Below are positions 1,125 to 10,192 of a DNA stretch of 64,000 nt, piece after piece (within the stretch, counting starts at the first letter, position 1; every line of letters begins with the position of its first letter). Under the pieces are notes generated by a model that saw only the letters and a list, made by a program, of their open reading frames with translations, was not told where the DNA came from and did no database searches. The stretch is from Octopus vulgaris (Eukaryota): positions 74,276,001 through 74,340,000 of the forward strand of contig OX597830.1 in the NCBI GenBank assembly GCA_951406725.2. Reading direction: 5' to 3'. Both the position numbers and the translations under genes were made by a program.

Positions 1125-1197
1125 TCTTACTGAAGAGCCTACCTGAGTAAATAAATATTATTTTTATTGCTGAAATAGGCGAAACTGCAGTCTAAGA
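1125..1197 (+). ncRNA. Type I minimal hammerhead ribozyme (second tandem copy)
   Basis: Identical to 721-793; predicted cleavage after 1192. Confidence 0.92.
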
Positions 1198-1369
1198 AGA
1201 ACTAAGTTTGTAAAAGTTTTTAAATTTCATCTCATTAAATTTATCCAGCTTTTGTGTATCTAGTACACACTTCGCCTTTTAATGTACTTATATATGAATA
1301 ATATATGGCGTGTCCTAGAACACCAGCGATAATAAGTAATTTTATTGTATCGCATTTGACTTTGTTTGC

Positions 1370-2198: not shown

Positions 2199-2627
2199 AC
2201 GTATGTATATTTTCATTAGTCCATACAATAGTATAATATACTTTGCTGACAGTGCTAACAAATCTTCTCTATCATCAACTTTTAAGACCCAATCCACAGT
2301 TTGCTGTAACTAACCTTGTGCCAATTTAAACGTAGGGATTCAATTGCAATTATCTCCCTTGGTTAAATTTATTTTGTATGTTAAACATATTTAAATATAT
2401 ATTATATATATATCTACTACTTGGTTCATGTGATCGGAATATTTCTACTCGTCATGTAAAATATGCAAAGCCCTTGGCTTATTTTTCTGTTAATCATGTA
2501 GGATCTTCTCTCCTGGGGCCCTTTACCGCCAGCAATACTTGTCCGTCTCGAATATTTCATATTTGTCCGCTAGCTTCCAATTCTTTCTTCCGACTTCCTG
2601 CCTTCTTTTCTCTTTCTTTCTTTCCTA

Positions 2628-2662
<35 letters not shown>

Positions 2663-2664
2663 TA

Positions 2665-2713
<49 letters not shown>

Positions 2714-2885
2714 TTTCTTCCTTCCTTTCTTTCTTTCTTTCATTCTTTGAGTGCACTGCTTGTTTTTTCGTTGGTTTCTTTCTACGTTTCTTTTTTTTCT
2801 GTTGAGTGTTTGGTCAGAAGAACAATAATTAACATTTCTTTAGGTGTTGGTACTACTACTACTTCTGCTGCTGCTGCTGCTGCTG

Positions 2886-2933
<48 letters not shown>

Positions 2934-3337
2934 TTGCGTCTACGACGACTGGCATCAGCTGCTGCGATTACAACTTCTGCTGATGATGATGATCGTAATG
3001 TTGAAGATGAAGATGATGATATGATGATGATAATGATGATGCTTATGACGATGATGATGATGATGATGATGATGATCACGATGATGGTGATGATCCTTGA
3101 AATGCATTTGGGAGTTTCTGTTGCTAAGGCTGCATTCACCGCCGCCCCTTTCTACACCACACCGCCATAATTGTAATGCTGAGAAACACTTTAAATTCAA
3201 TGGTCTGGCAATTACTCTTCAATTCAAATATAGGGAAAATGTGTATTTCTGTTCATCCTTTGCCCATGTGTAAGAACTAACGCATACACATCATTCACAC
3301 ACATAGAAACATATGCCCAAATACAATCATACGTATA

Positions 3338-3390
<53 letters not shown>

Positions 3391-3584
3391 ATATACATGT
3401 ATATATGCATGTATATATGCATGTCTATATATATATATATATGTATTTATATATACATATAATTATATATGTATTGCGTATGTGTATGTATGTATATATA
3501 GAGAGAGCGGGAGAGAAAGAAGAAAAGAAAGCGAAAGAGATGTATATATATATATATATTTATATATACGTAAATTATATGTTT

Positions 3585-3640
<56 letters not shown>

Positions 3641-3680
3641 ATATATACATATATATTATATGTTTGTGAAGAAAGCAAAA

Positions 3681-3733
<53 letters not shown>

Positions 3734-3829
3734 TATATATTATATGTGTGTGTTTGAGTGCATGTATATGCGTACGTATATAGCTGATGCAAATATGCAT
3801 CGAGAAACAGATATGTACTTCTGTATGTG

Positions 3830-3863
<34 letters not shown>

Positions 3864-4384
3864 AACTTCCTTTTATTTTCATAAACGAATGAAAGTATTT
3901 GGTTGTGTTTGTGTGAGTGAATGTACGTATCTTCGCATATATTATATGAAATATGTATTTATAGATTGTATCCAGGAGTTACCCACATAATGCTCGGCCC
4001 CACAAAAAAATAGACTCCAATATATAACGTAAAGAATCTGAAACAAGACCACATACACACGCACGCACACACACCTACATACATACATAAACACACGAAC
4101 TCACACACATACACACGTACATATACACACTCGCACACCTACATATGCTTATTTATACATATTCTAAAATGTGTACATCTTAAATTATTCCCTAGAAAGA
4201 AACAGCGCATGCCTATTCAACATCTTATACAGAATCCAACACGCGGTCATACGTATTATATATTCATAGACTCATATTTATGCAAATGAATTACATACAT
4301 ATATGCATGGTAATGTGCACACATACACACAGAAGCAAACACACATATATATTCATATATACAAATGTCTATGTATATACATAC

Positions 4385-4441
<57 letters not shown>

Positions 4442-4446
4442 TATAC

Positions 4447-4529
<83 letters not shown>

Positions 4530-4543
4530 AATATATATATACA

Positions 4544-4764
4544 AGTAATAAGAGAGAGACCACATGTGGTCACTCTAACACTAGAAATAGATACGCAAGG
4601 GAATTCACCACTAAAGAATTCTTCTCAAGTATTAATTCAACACGCCAAGAATGTAAGCGGGCAGTGTTGAATTAATACTTGAGAACAATTCTTTAGTGGT
4701 GAATTCCCTTTGCGTATCTATTTCTAGCGTTAGATTGACCACATGTGGTCTCTCTCTTATTACT
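4544..4764. repeat. Long inverted repeat (about 100-bp arms, about 20-nt spacer), MITE-like or fold-back element
   Basis: AGTAATAAGAGAGAGACCACATGTGGTCA...TTCAACAC pairs with GTGTTGAA...TGACCACATGTGGTCTCTCTCTTATTACT with few mismatches. Confidence 0.9.
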
Positions 4765-6609
4765 ATTATTAATAATTTTTACTGTATCTCAGTTTTTTTA
4801 CGCTAGGCCACTTGGTGTTTTAAATTGATGTTATTAATTAATATTCAATTTTTTCACCCTTATTGTGATTTTAATTATATATATATATATGTATGTATAT
4901 ATATATGTATGTATGTACGTATCTATCATTATAATATATATATATATATATATGTTTGTATGTAGCTATATATTATATATGCATACATACATAAACGTTT
5001 GTATGAGTGTTTCTCTATATACAACTGTACGCCAAATGCACCCAAACACATCCCAGAGCACACACGTTCAACATACACACAAATATCATATACAACCCAA
5101 CCGAAGTTTGCGCAACGGTAACTTCTTGAACCTCTACTGATAGGCGTTATACACAAGTCTAGTTTTTAAAAAATATGCTCCTTGTTGTGGTTTCCTCTCT
5201 CCTTATGTCTGTGATGTAGGCCATAGTGGGTAGAAATATGAAAACAGATAAGTGCTTCTACATGGCTGTTTGACCTTTTTGAAACTCTGACATATTTCAG
5301 TAGCGTCCTGAGAAATTAGCATTGAAAGTTAAACTCTTTATTAAGAAAAGCTGTGGAGATAACCACCTAACCCTAATATTTCTTCATGATCAGAGGACAC
5401 AGGGGTATAAACAGAAATGTTCGACTTGGTGGATTTGCTAGCTAAACATCCCTGAATTCAAACAGATGATACGGGTTGTGCAGTGGAAGAAAAATGTGGT
5501 TATACATACGAAAAATAAAACGCGTTGGTTACAATAGGAATATTCTTGACCATAGATTTGAGCTGCGAGCTAAACAATAACAATACTATACTCTTTACTC
5601 TCTTTTTACTTTTTTACTTGTTTCAGTCATTAGACTGCGGCCATGCTGGAGTATAGATCAGTTCGTACGGAACTAAACTGAATTAAACGAAAACAACTGT
5701 AGCAGCAATGAGGCACATTTAATATCAAACAACGCATAAAACTCAACGTTTGTGTTACGTCACATTATAGCAAAAGAAAACCCCGATCTTATTTGAGTTA
5801 CGTACCTTGGTTGCTTTATACTAAGAGTGTAAACAGTTATTAACAATTAAAGTTGAATATATGTATTTTACCACAAGGGATGATATTTTCGTAATGTTTT
5901 ATCATCTAATAATTAAACGTTATTATAGTTAAACATTATTGATAATACATATTTATTGCAAAAAAATATTATTCCTCTTGCGAAATAAATATTCATTTCT
6001 CATTTTCTACATGCAGCACGAAAATTTGAGAAAGTAAATCTGATATTACTACAGCTTTGTAATATCATCTGATATCAAACATACAAAGAAAAAAATGTAC
6101 TTAATGGTATATATCATGACGGGTGACACTCGAAGCTGTATAGCCGCAAATGTGAGTGGGAGCAGCAACAGAATAGCAGAGTTACATAGGGAAGGAACTG
6201 AGCCATTTACTTAAATCTCTCTACCTTCAGCCAATGCCGTGCCTCAATGAACTATCGACCTGTGACAAATAGCCGCCAAATGTCACATTCATCCTAATGT
6301 CTTAGAACAGTGACATACTGGAAACTATGTTTCATGCTCGATAACACAGAAGAAACCAGAAAGAATGGTCATGCCTGGAAGACATTTAAACTTAAGCCTG
6401 TTTGACGACAATTGACATGAAATTGATAAAAGACAAAATAAATAAATATATAATAACAACAATATTCTGAGTTCGAAATAATAGTAAGCAAAATAAAGCA
6501 TCGTTGTAATAATGTTATATTAAGATCCATATAGCAGAATATAAAATCACATCAGTAAATATGAGGCTTTGTGGTAAGGTCAAAAATGAATTTATGTATA
6601 CGTAGATAA

Positions 6610-6874: not shown

Positions 6875-7049
6875 CTGGAATAATTACTATGAATCATTGT
6901 GTGGAATATATTGTATAGAGGAACATGGGTAAGGCCAGAACAATGTGAAATGGAAGCAAGGCAAATCACAAGAAAGCAAATATATAAATTAATGTAGGCT
7001 TACCTTGCATTCGATATTTCAGGGTTATCGCGCCATTTTCAAGAAATTA

Positions 7050-8043
7050 ACGAATTTTGCCGACGTGCGTGTGTGTGACCATGTGTGAAGTGGACATGCG
7101 CCGAAATGTGTTGCTATAGCAACCAGATAGCTTCCTGTAACTCCCTTCTGTTATTGGTATTTGGCTTCCTTTGGTGTATGAGGAAGACCTCAGCGATTCT
7201 AAGGTTGCCCCATTTCCACTGTGTTGCCCTGATGTGCACTGTGAATTCCCGGGTCTGGCATTTCCGTAGATGTTTCTTCGTTCCTTAATGCGTATATGCA
7301 GTTTTCTTGTGTTTTTCCTATGTAGGATGCGCCATATTTGCCACCGATGATCTCGTGTACAACATAGGTCCTCTGACACAATTCAGGATCATTGAAGGGG
7401 CAGTTCGATAATTTTCCCTCTTCGGAGTAGTGAGAGGTGTTGTTCTTGGACAGGGAAGGCCCTTCTCAGGGAAGGGCCGGTGTGCACTGTCTGTATATCG
7501 AGTGCTTTAGGAAGCACGTGCCGGACTTGGGAGTATGAGTTTATTGACCCTGATGTTCTTTAGGCGCCGTTGTTTGGCTAAAGATGGTAGTTAGCCATTC
7601 AGGGTTAGGTCTCTGAGGAATTATTTGGTGGTGACGGCTTCACCGGTCTCTTCGCTGAAATTGTTGTTCATACCTGCAATCTCGTTTCTCACATATGTGT
7701 CTTTGGCTGTGTTGGGTAAGACTGATTGGTATGGACGAAAAGTTTTCTGTTAGCGGCTTTAGAAGTTGCTAAATATGTAGCCTGGAGCCTTACTACTATC
7801 ATTCTAAGTTGAAAATCGAGTAGAGAGATGTTTCCGGGATCGTCTGGATGTCCAATCTCGAAATTGATGTTTACGTCTATGTTATGTCTGGTGTATGTTA
7901 ATGGCCTCATCCCTAGAGGACGTGATGATACAGATATCATCAGCGTATCTGAAGAAGATGCATAAACGGCAAATGTTCAGTATAATGGTTAATAACTCTC
8001 GTATGTCCGAGGGTGTGAGGCCGAAATGCTGGAGGTAAATGGT

Positions 8044-8119: not shown

Positions 8120-8202
8120 CTCTCGACACATGTTTCGAAGGCTGCATATTCCTAATTCCGAAGGAATAAAGGGTGCATTATGCCGCCATCTCATCAGGAA
8201 AG
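8120..8202 (-). ncRNA. Type I hammerhead ribozyme adjacent to the PLE
   Basis: Minus strand: CTTTC-CTGATGA-GATGGC..GCCTTC-GAAA-C(ATGT)G-TC^GAGAG. All core nucleotides are present, with a GUC site. Confidence 0.82.
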
Positions 8203-8560: not shown

Positions 8561-8572
8561 TAATAAAACGTA

Positions 8573-8655
<83 letters not shown>

Positions 8656-8874
8656 GTGTGTGTATAGAATATGAACGGGCTAGTTCACTGGTGATCTAAG
8701 CGAATAGGTACGCTGCGTAAGTGTTATAAATTATTATCCGTTTGAGTTAGCAGCTATGTATTAGAAGAAAAAGGCCAACAAGTTCGGGTATCTCAAGTCC
8801 TTTATAATATTCAATTAGAGGAAGGCGAATTTGTGGCAATTAATTAATAATTATTCAGTTAATTAATTATTGGA

Positions 8875-8952
8875 TGTCTTACAGCTGCTTCTAGGATATC
8901 CCATGTGATGGGTTAGCATCCCTATAGACTGGGTATTCTGTCCTCAGAGACA
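8875..8952 (-). ncRNA. Hammerhead ribozyme, core variant (GAAG)
   Basis: Minus strand: TGTCT-CTGAGGA-..-GAAG-CAGCTG-TA^AGACA. Helix I is perfect and helix III palindromic; A15.1 is changed to G. Confidence 0.65.
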
Positions 8953-9135
8953 AGGTGAGTATGTATGAAAGTTTTAGACGGAATTCACAAGTTATAACGG
9001 TATAAAATTGGAAATAGAAGAGTAAAGAATAGAACAGCATTACTCTACCTAATGTTTTACTCTTCATTTGTCAATCTACTATTTTATTCCTTTACCTGTG
9101 AATTCTCTGTCTAGAACATTCATAAATACTCACCT

Positions 9136-9212
9136 TGTCTCTGATGACGGGTTACCCAGCGTATGGACATGTTAACCTACCACTTGGGATCACTAGAAAC
9201 AGCTGTACGGCA
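9136..9212 (+). ncRNA. Hammerhead ribozyme
   Basis: TGTCT-CTGATGA-CGGGTTACCCAG..TTGGGATCACTA-GAAA-CAGCTG-TA^CGGCA. Core intact; helices I and II imperfect. Confidence 0.7.
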
Positions 9213-9452
9213 TCCAATAATTAATTAATTAACTAATCAAATACTTAATTACCGCAAATTCAACTTACTCTAAGTATTCTAATTGACTTGAGATATTCAT
9301 GCTGCCTTCGTTTTTGTTGTCCTTTTCTCGTTAATAGATGTATGTATGTGTATATATATATATAGGTGTGCGTGTGTGTGTGTTTGTGTGTATGCGTGTA
9401 TGTATTTTTAAAAGTACATAAATATATGTGTGTATATATATACATATATAAA

Positions 9453-9551
<99 letters not shown>

Positions 9552-10068
9552 TATATAAAAAATACAAAATAGGACAAGAACGCAAAAAACACAAAGAGAC
9601 GAGACAAAGAACGGACGGGTCATTCGAAGCTTCTAATCTTCAGTCAGGAACCGGATCGTCCTAGCAAATTTCGGCTAATTAATCCTGATATCGCTGAGAT
9701 CCGGCTAGCCCCAATGAAAGACTAAGCTGCGAGCATTAGATTTCTTGGAAAGAGGATCGAATGTATACGAAACAAGGACAGAAAAACGGACGATGCCACA
9801 CGAATATAAATACAAAAAACGAGAAAGCGAGAGAGAGAGAGAGAGAGAGAGGGAGGTTATGAGAGGTAATGGTGCCAATAAGATCCAAAGGTGTCAGGTA
9901 ATGCTGAGTAAGTGCTATGGACAGACTATAGCTGAGTTCAAGGTTCGGTGATTATGCGAATGAGGAGTCCAACTTAGGTCATATATCAGCATGTGTATAT
10001 ATAAACAAAATTTTCAGAATGAGATAAAAATCCAAAGCTGTGAAAGTCTTCAGAACATTTATAAATAT

Positions 10069-10116
10069 GTCTTACAGCTGTTTCCGGGATACTTTATATA
10101 TCCCTTCATCGGAGAC
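10069..10116 (-). ncRNA. Compact hammerhead ribozyme, U4C variant
   Basis: Minus strand: GTCT-CCGATGA-AGGGATA(TATAAAG)TATCCCG-GAAA-CAGCTG-TA^AGAC. Confidence 0.72.
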
Positions 10117-10192
10117 GGTGTGAGAAAATAGTTGAGCAATAGTTATATATGTATGCATGTGAGTGTGTGTGTGTGTATGTGTGTCTGTGTGT

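Follow-up and report, generated by a model that had tools for sequence, protein, structure and literature searches.

The window, a stretch of 64,000 nucleotides from Octopus vulgaris (GCA_951406725.2, contig OX597830.1, positions 74,276,001 to 74,340,000), is AT-rich and full of microsatellites, and one of these harbours an insertion (Table 1) that, with a probability of roughly 0.93, is comprised of two 5′-truncated 3′ ends of a Hydra-type Penelope-like element (PLE) placed head to head, likely by one insertion primed from both target strands and likely decaying since. An earlier note on this DNA had taken a head-to-head PLE-derived duplication as its default reading, which is supported and is now tied to a coding family. 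The unit size of ~435 bp (8827..9261) given there needed correction to ~670 bp (8667-9338), the left arm extending ~150 bp past 8827 and the right arm ~75 bp past 9261. A target-site duplication is unreadable at this locus, its flanks being microsatellite.

Table 1. Features of the insertion and its flanks (positions in the window; HHR, hammerhead ribozyme)
Feature	Position	Strand	Description
Whole insertion (locus L080)	8667..9338		Probably a head-to-head pair of 5′-truncated PLE 3′ ends, which point outward
Left arm	8667..9038	-	Ends at the long 3′ site (~+275 from the HHR cut); starts at ~-160
Left-arm-only tail	8667..8756	-	Length 141 nt when intact; reduced to ~90 in this copy by a 51-nt internal deletion
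Inner junction	9038..9045		Truncation points of the two arms almost coincide on the element (-159 and -167)
Right arm	9041..9338	+	Ends at the short 3′ site (+134)
Left flank, (TA)n/(GT)n microsatellite	8570..8666		Likely target site
Right flank, (GT)n/(TA)n microsatellite	9339..9557		Likely target site
Type I hammerhead motif, left	8875..8952	-	Core 8947-8941, GAAG 8891-8888, predicted cut 3′ of 8880; decayed
Type I hammerhead motif, right	9136..9212	+	Core 9141-9147, GAAA 9196-9199, palindromic stem III/loop, predicted cut 3′ of 9207

The region 8800-9290 is predicted to fold into a single rod (-213.5 kcal/mol, z = -19.7), with none of 100 shuffled sequences as stable, which bears out the rod described earlier. 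Folding in circular mode is slightly less stable than in linear mode, and the minus strand is rod-forming too. A motif scan confirmed one type I HHR motif per strand in opposite arms, at 9141-9207 (plus) and 8947-8880 (minus), with stem I at the outer coordinates read before and the two cut sites 328 nt apart. At both arms the call was made from the motif and inspection of the stems rather than from Rfam, in which no family reached the gathering score in the window; matches at E up to 5 were generic hairpin or microsatellite ones far under cutoff, with no hammerhead model among them. Isolated minimum-free-energy folds of the HHRs, two better-kept copies included, did not give the hammerhead fold.

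Each HHR has a defect, as the earlier note had observed. In the left HHR, GAAG replaces GAAA (A15.1 to G at 8888, present in 1 of 70 arms of the family) and G10.1 is changed to A, a CpG change common to 17 of the 70 arms. The right HHR has a broken stem I pair adjoining the cut (9208), again a change found in 1 of 70 arms, together with a weaker proximal stem II. The family HHR carries an extra A between C11.1 and G12 in 66 of 70 arms, beside the usual extra base after A9, so that a C-A opposition closes its long stem II. Its core is kept in 35 of 69 arms, a figure partly biased by the motif with which loci were picked. The divergence of the two arms at the locus is indeed noticeable, with 173 identical letters in 234 alignment columns, 49 mismatches, and 12 gaps (78% identity over 222 aligned letters). 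Each arm lies ~13% from the column majority of the family alignment (family median, 8%), and the two share only 2 of their 32/33 variants; indications of a single template, which are given below, therefore apply to the family and not to this copy.

The parent family was traced in the same genome, where a DNA search returned at least 92 matches (40 of 914 candidates were scored) and two exact or near-exact family motifs occur at 74 and 100 places, their reversed controls at 0. Upstream of the arm, family copies contain a UTR of ~650 nt, preceded by a frame encoding a CxCX5C linker and a GIY-YIG-type motif, with CxxC as well and with CxH at its end. This endonuclease (EN) matches Pfam PF01541 at E = 1.8e-4 and 22.2 bits, slightly under the curated cutoff of 22.6. 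Farther upstream lies a reverse transcriptase (RT) with YRDD. The window copy itself is without an ORF, and the RT-EN order is known from longer family copies: an RT followed by a C-terminal GIY-YIG in the same element was seen in L074, L075, and L078, and L075 holds RT, EN, UTR, HHR, and an end at +136 in this order. The RT call is based on motifs and homology; Pfam reported no RT family in the family RT piece, in the Octopus bimaculoides protein P0001, or in six full-length homologues, and a PDB search gave no match. The RT homologues are proteins of 715-880 aa with RWK/RWR in 22 and DKT/DKS in 25 of the 26 full-length ones, and the sole family copy reaching the N-terminus is decayed, with only a stretch similar to these motifs.

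With regard to clade, the Hydra definition comprises a CxCX5C linker together with CxxC and CxH motifs flanking conserved E and N (PMC8557442, available text), and RWK and DKT near the N-terminus are further features of the clade. The linker is found in 5 of 8 family loci, the CxxCLxE and CxH end motifs were seen, and the 3′ flanks of family copies indicate insertion into (TA)n. By its linker and EN motifs the family is probably a Hydra-type PLE, and its similarity to the published Hydra alignment was judged by eye. The Neptune clade, an initial guess, was dropped once the Hydra definition matched. Among named proteins, the nearest relative of the family comes from O. bimaculoides. Every family ORF piece seen is broken; the search for an intact full-length copy of this exact family found none, and no family HHR arm stood beside the ORF in 15 genomic protein matches examined with their flanks out of 104. 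The longest copy (L078) begins in microsatellite and showed no 5′ pLTR upstream, and comparison of the tail with the DNA preceding the longest ORF gave no match (score 38 vs a shuffled mean of 36). Contigs from four presumed-RNA runs contained family relatives only, none 99% alike or spanning the stretch, a result that is neutral on expression. The openly readable literature, to which the search was confined, yielded no publication dealing with this family or with a tail of 141 nt.

Two side observations concern coding sequences. P0001, annotated as 'GATA zinc finger domain-containing protein 14-like', is a PLE reverse-transcriptase fragment and likely mis-annotated. Long (AAT)n/(ACT)n tracts coding for Asn/Thr runs are located inside the ORF between RT and EN in L029 (4400-5400), L064, and L065, resembling the Asn-rich inserts known in Adineta Penelopes (PMC3846280, available text); the ORF listing of L029 is mostly microsatellite noise.

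The geometry of the insertions was examined in 123 locus entries (116 unique), of which 39 were collected by similarity, 30 by HHR motif, 30 by tail, and 24 by endonuclease, all placed on the coordinates of a natural copy, with the HHR cut site as origin. Arms end outward at two fixed sites, a short one at +134 and a long one at ~+275, which are 141 nt apart. Loci not picked by tail provided 109 outer ends, of which 50 are of the short type, 46 of the long type, and 13 at other positions; beyond nearly all of them the sequence is microsatellite. The distance between the sites is 141 nt in 16 of 34 measurements, in which some loci are counted twice, and mostly shorter through deletions in the rest. 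Head-to-head pairs were detected at 53 of the 116 unique loci, a count that misses long pairs since the flanks were mostly 1.5 kb, and a tail-to-tail pair at 1. Half of the 30 HHR-picked loci (15) are head to head, and an HHR is present on both arms in 8. Inverted two-HHR units thus recur, and the refuting condition named in the earlier note, that homologues be mostly single arms, is only half true.

At least one end was unassignable in 22 of the 53 pairs, and 31 were scored for end types: 30 combine a long with a short end (p = 3e-8), 1 is short-short, and none is long-long. One long and one short end per pair is the PLE 'tail' signature. The inner junctions are different at every locus, yet in 18 of 53 pairs the two inner ends are no more than 25 nt apart, against 4.6 expected, or 6.9 within groups; in motif-picked loci only, the corresponding figures are 9 of 27 and 2.1. 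Sister arms also share variants: 1.66% of letters are common non-majority letters, whereas shuffled partners share 0.61% (no permutation out of 5000 reached the observed value), a difference that fits one template, later gene conversion being another possible source. At the inner junctions of two loci, L028 (828-1451) and L027 (1785-2046), tandem arrays of family sequence with 27- and 41-bp periods were noticed, possibly from RT stuttering or later slippage.

Several other origins were weighed for the pair. The earlier note had suggested an integrated or derived ambisense viroid-like circular RNA with a rod of ~435 nt and one ribozyme per polarity, and had looked to the recurrence of the inverted two-HHR unit with arm-specific conserved differences as its test. 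A rod on both strands with one HHR motif per strand does agree with the viroid-like definition in the available text of PMC10162972, and such units do recur across loci. However, they recur at every length (166-2533 nt cut to cut in 21 two-HHR pairs), so there is no unit length. In an alignment of 70 arms (21 pairs and 28 singles) with 271 columns, none is specific to long or short arms after Bonferroni correction (smallest p 0.006, limit 0.00018). Variant sharing across loci is equal for long-long (0.62%), short-short (0.60%), and long-short (0.61%) combinations, and the arm label requires 26 changes on the tree vs 22.5-22.8 when shuffled, without clustering by arm type. G-U pairs from arm mismatches are even between the strands, both here (13 vs 12) and over the 21 pairs (180 vs 209, p = 0.16), and, per base, six other pairs have more stable folds than the window pair. 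The genomic ends lie away from the HHR cut sites, and no head-to-tail repeat or multimer of the pair was seen in the locus maps. The ribozyme architecture also argues against an RNA replicon, since stem III is here of the 2-bp palindromic type that acts as a same-strand dimer (PMC4209133, available text), and, judging from its sequence layout, the head-to-head pair would supply the plus HHR with an antisense partner only; freeing this HHR from the rod is computed to cost ~74 kcal/mol. The replicon thus fails the recurrence test, and its likelihood is considered negligible. The random post-insertion decay of arm differences that the same note had named as a refutation fits the data: the arm tree is star-like (with rough support), the two disabling changes, at 8888 and 9208, are each confined to 1 of 70 arms, CpG letters are changed in 23-28% of copies vs 7-8% for other C/G (two CpG sites only), and the arms seem to have acquired their differences independently, as decaying DNA.

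The remaining explanations invoke DNA-level spread or host processes. A non-autonomous inverted-repeat element (MITE, fold-back, or retrozyme) might have been born from a PLE pair and spread as a unit, and 10 of the 21 pairs are in fact alike in size (cut to cut, 291-393 nt), although this cluster is enriched by the query used. Against such spread, none of the 53 pairs has both its exact junction and its private variants in common with other loci, arms of different pairs are not grouped by side, and the tandem HHR units needed by retrozymes are absent from the locus maps of the family; the idea is therefore highly improbable, if a shade less so than the replicon. A host event after insertion, either an inverted duplication or the independent insertion of two copies in one microsatellite, would agree with the fact that the window arms show no greater likeness than arms taken from unrelated loci (59th and 61st of 69 in likeness to each other), and it is the least improbable of these alternatives while still very unlikely. 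Independent insertions predict long-long, short-short, and tail-to-tail combinations, whereas the counts are 0, 1, and 1 vs 30 long+short; a host duplication would duplicate the same outer end, and the coupling of inner ends (18 of 53) also speaks against a host event. At the family level, a host-event origin is refuted by the end-type counts. It is also conceivable that the decayed pair has been retained by the host as a long hairpin, serving as an editing substrate or small-RNA source, as any read-through transcript would make a stable duplex; but its arms are among the most diverged (23.6% vs a sister mean of 14.8%) and their mismatches show no compensatory or wobble bias, which leaves this idea as remote as the viroid-like replicon.

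Returning to the preferred reading, a doubled PLE end, the following steps of priming and joining can be proposed. Briefly, the GIY-YIG endonuclease would nick both strands of (TA)n, and the two 3′-OH ends would prime cDNA at +134 and ~+275 of an RNA uncut at the hammerhead, the latter being suggested by copies that cross the HHR cut site. Both cDNAs would stop early, and end joining, a fold-back, or a template switch would connect their inner ends. On this view, rod and facing ribozymes are by-products of one sequence occurring twice in opposite orientation. The pair may stem from two cDNAs or from one fold-back. It was reported that PLE insertions often have an inverted 5′-truncated copy and a tail of 30-40 bp at one end (PMC8557442) and that head-to-head pairs with palindromic junctions are common, which was interpreted as self-priming (PMC3846280). 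In addition, the PAc protein of the anole has been found to cut and extend both strands, to begin reverse transcription at two internal sites bounding the tail, and to prefer uncut RNA (PMC11167929; available text of all three sources). A more specific version, possible but on balance doubtful, is that the Hydra-clade enzyme primes two cDNAs from opposite strands at RNA sites 141 nt apart on one template, and that the copy started downstream overtakes the other and switches onto it. Overtaking with a switch would account at once for the strict long+short pairing, for the coupling of the inner junctions, and for the variants that sisters share. If true, this model would settle the origin of PLE head-to-head pairs between two-strand priming and self-priming on antisense RNA, and would carry the two-site rule over to another clade and to a tail of far greater length.

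Most ingredients of this arrangement have precedents, which were compared on the basis of the available text of each source. The Hydra clade, including Hydra-1_Obim (PMC8557442), resembles the family in its RT-CxCX5C-GIY-YIG organization, CxxC/CxH motifs, (TA)n targets, sense HHR near the 3′ end, and inverted 5′-truncated copy with a tail at one end, and passages of the Hydra-1_Obim protein resemble, by eye, the RT, N-terminal, and linker motifs of the family. Nevertheless, Hydra-1_Obim is a different family: its listed HHR is unlike, five family motifs are unmatched in the supplement of PMC8557442 as available, and the present family differs in the long stem II and extra A before G12 of its HHR and in having all ORFs broken. 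Its tail of 141 nt also contrasts with the 30-40 nt of published PLEs (PMC8557442). Minimal HHRs on opposite strands, 100-700 bp apart and derived from truncated PLEs, were described in Schistosoma for Cercyon PLEs (PMC4209133); these are of type I with an unpaired nucleotide after A9, a long helix II, and a palindromic helix III, which is exactly the layout in the window, and they are not analysed further in the available text. Adineta Pen2/Pen2a (PMC3846280) share head-to-head inverted pLTRs, palindromic junctions, and a one-sided tail, and the anole Poseidon protein PAc (PMC11167929) shares, in vitro, two-strand cutting and extension with two internal RT starts that bound the tail; both differ in their Penelope/Poseidon clade, a tail of 31-40 nt, an HHR at the ORF start, and readable target-site duplications. 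The ambisense viroid-like circular RNAs (PMC10162972) resemble the window pair in the rod fold and one ribozyme motif per polarity, whereas they are unit-length RNA circles with active ribozymes and the window pair is chromosomal DNA of a variable-length type, in our reading a doubled retrotransposon end. Metazoan non-LTR retrozymes (10.64898/2026.07.22.740005) likewise carry a type I HHR of PLE origin in animal genomes, but as head-to-tail tandem units each with an HHR, none of which was seen in this family. According to the available text of PMC8557442, PMC3846280, and PMC4209133, inverted copies, tails, and opposite-strand HHR pairs are already known, and it is the family that is new.

The window locus, a single old repeat copy, carries little weight alone. 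More generally, PLE insertions routinely yield rods with hammerhead pairs on opposite strands that mimic viroid-like RNAs, and these could contaminate screens for circles with ambisense ribozymes. The long+short pairing (30 of 31), the near-symmetric junctions (18 of 53), and the 141-nt tail bear on how PLEs build inverted structures, and the long tail together with the coupled inner junctions constrains the formation of inverted pairs.

Some other elements were encountered in the window. At 10067-10125 (minus strand) there is a related hammerhead remnant with the same stem I and palindromic stem III, a shorter stem II, and an altered core at C3-C4, likely from a sibling PLE family. A decayed RT frame with FRYADD and stops at 6990-8040 (minus) is likely another 5′-truncated PLE, and an HHR-like motif is located at 8125-8197 on the same strand. 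Two identical HHR-like motifs at 726-800 and 1130-1204 (plus), 404 bp apart, form a candidate young tandem repeat of the retrozyme type. Elsewhere, the sibling PLE L143 (G000:C5:50454000-50463000) has an open frame of 806 codons (ORF 2487-4904), and its arms at 986-1385 and 1992-2391 are 98% alike, with two identical hammerheads facing outward; this is the window layout in a young copy, and siblings of this type are better material for studying the mechanism than the window pair.
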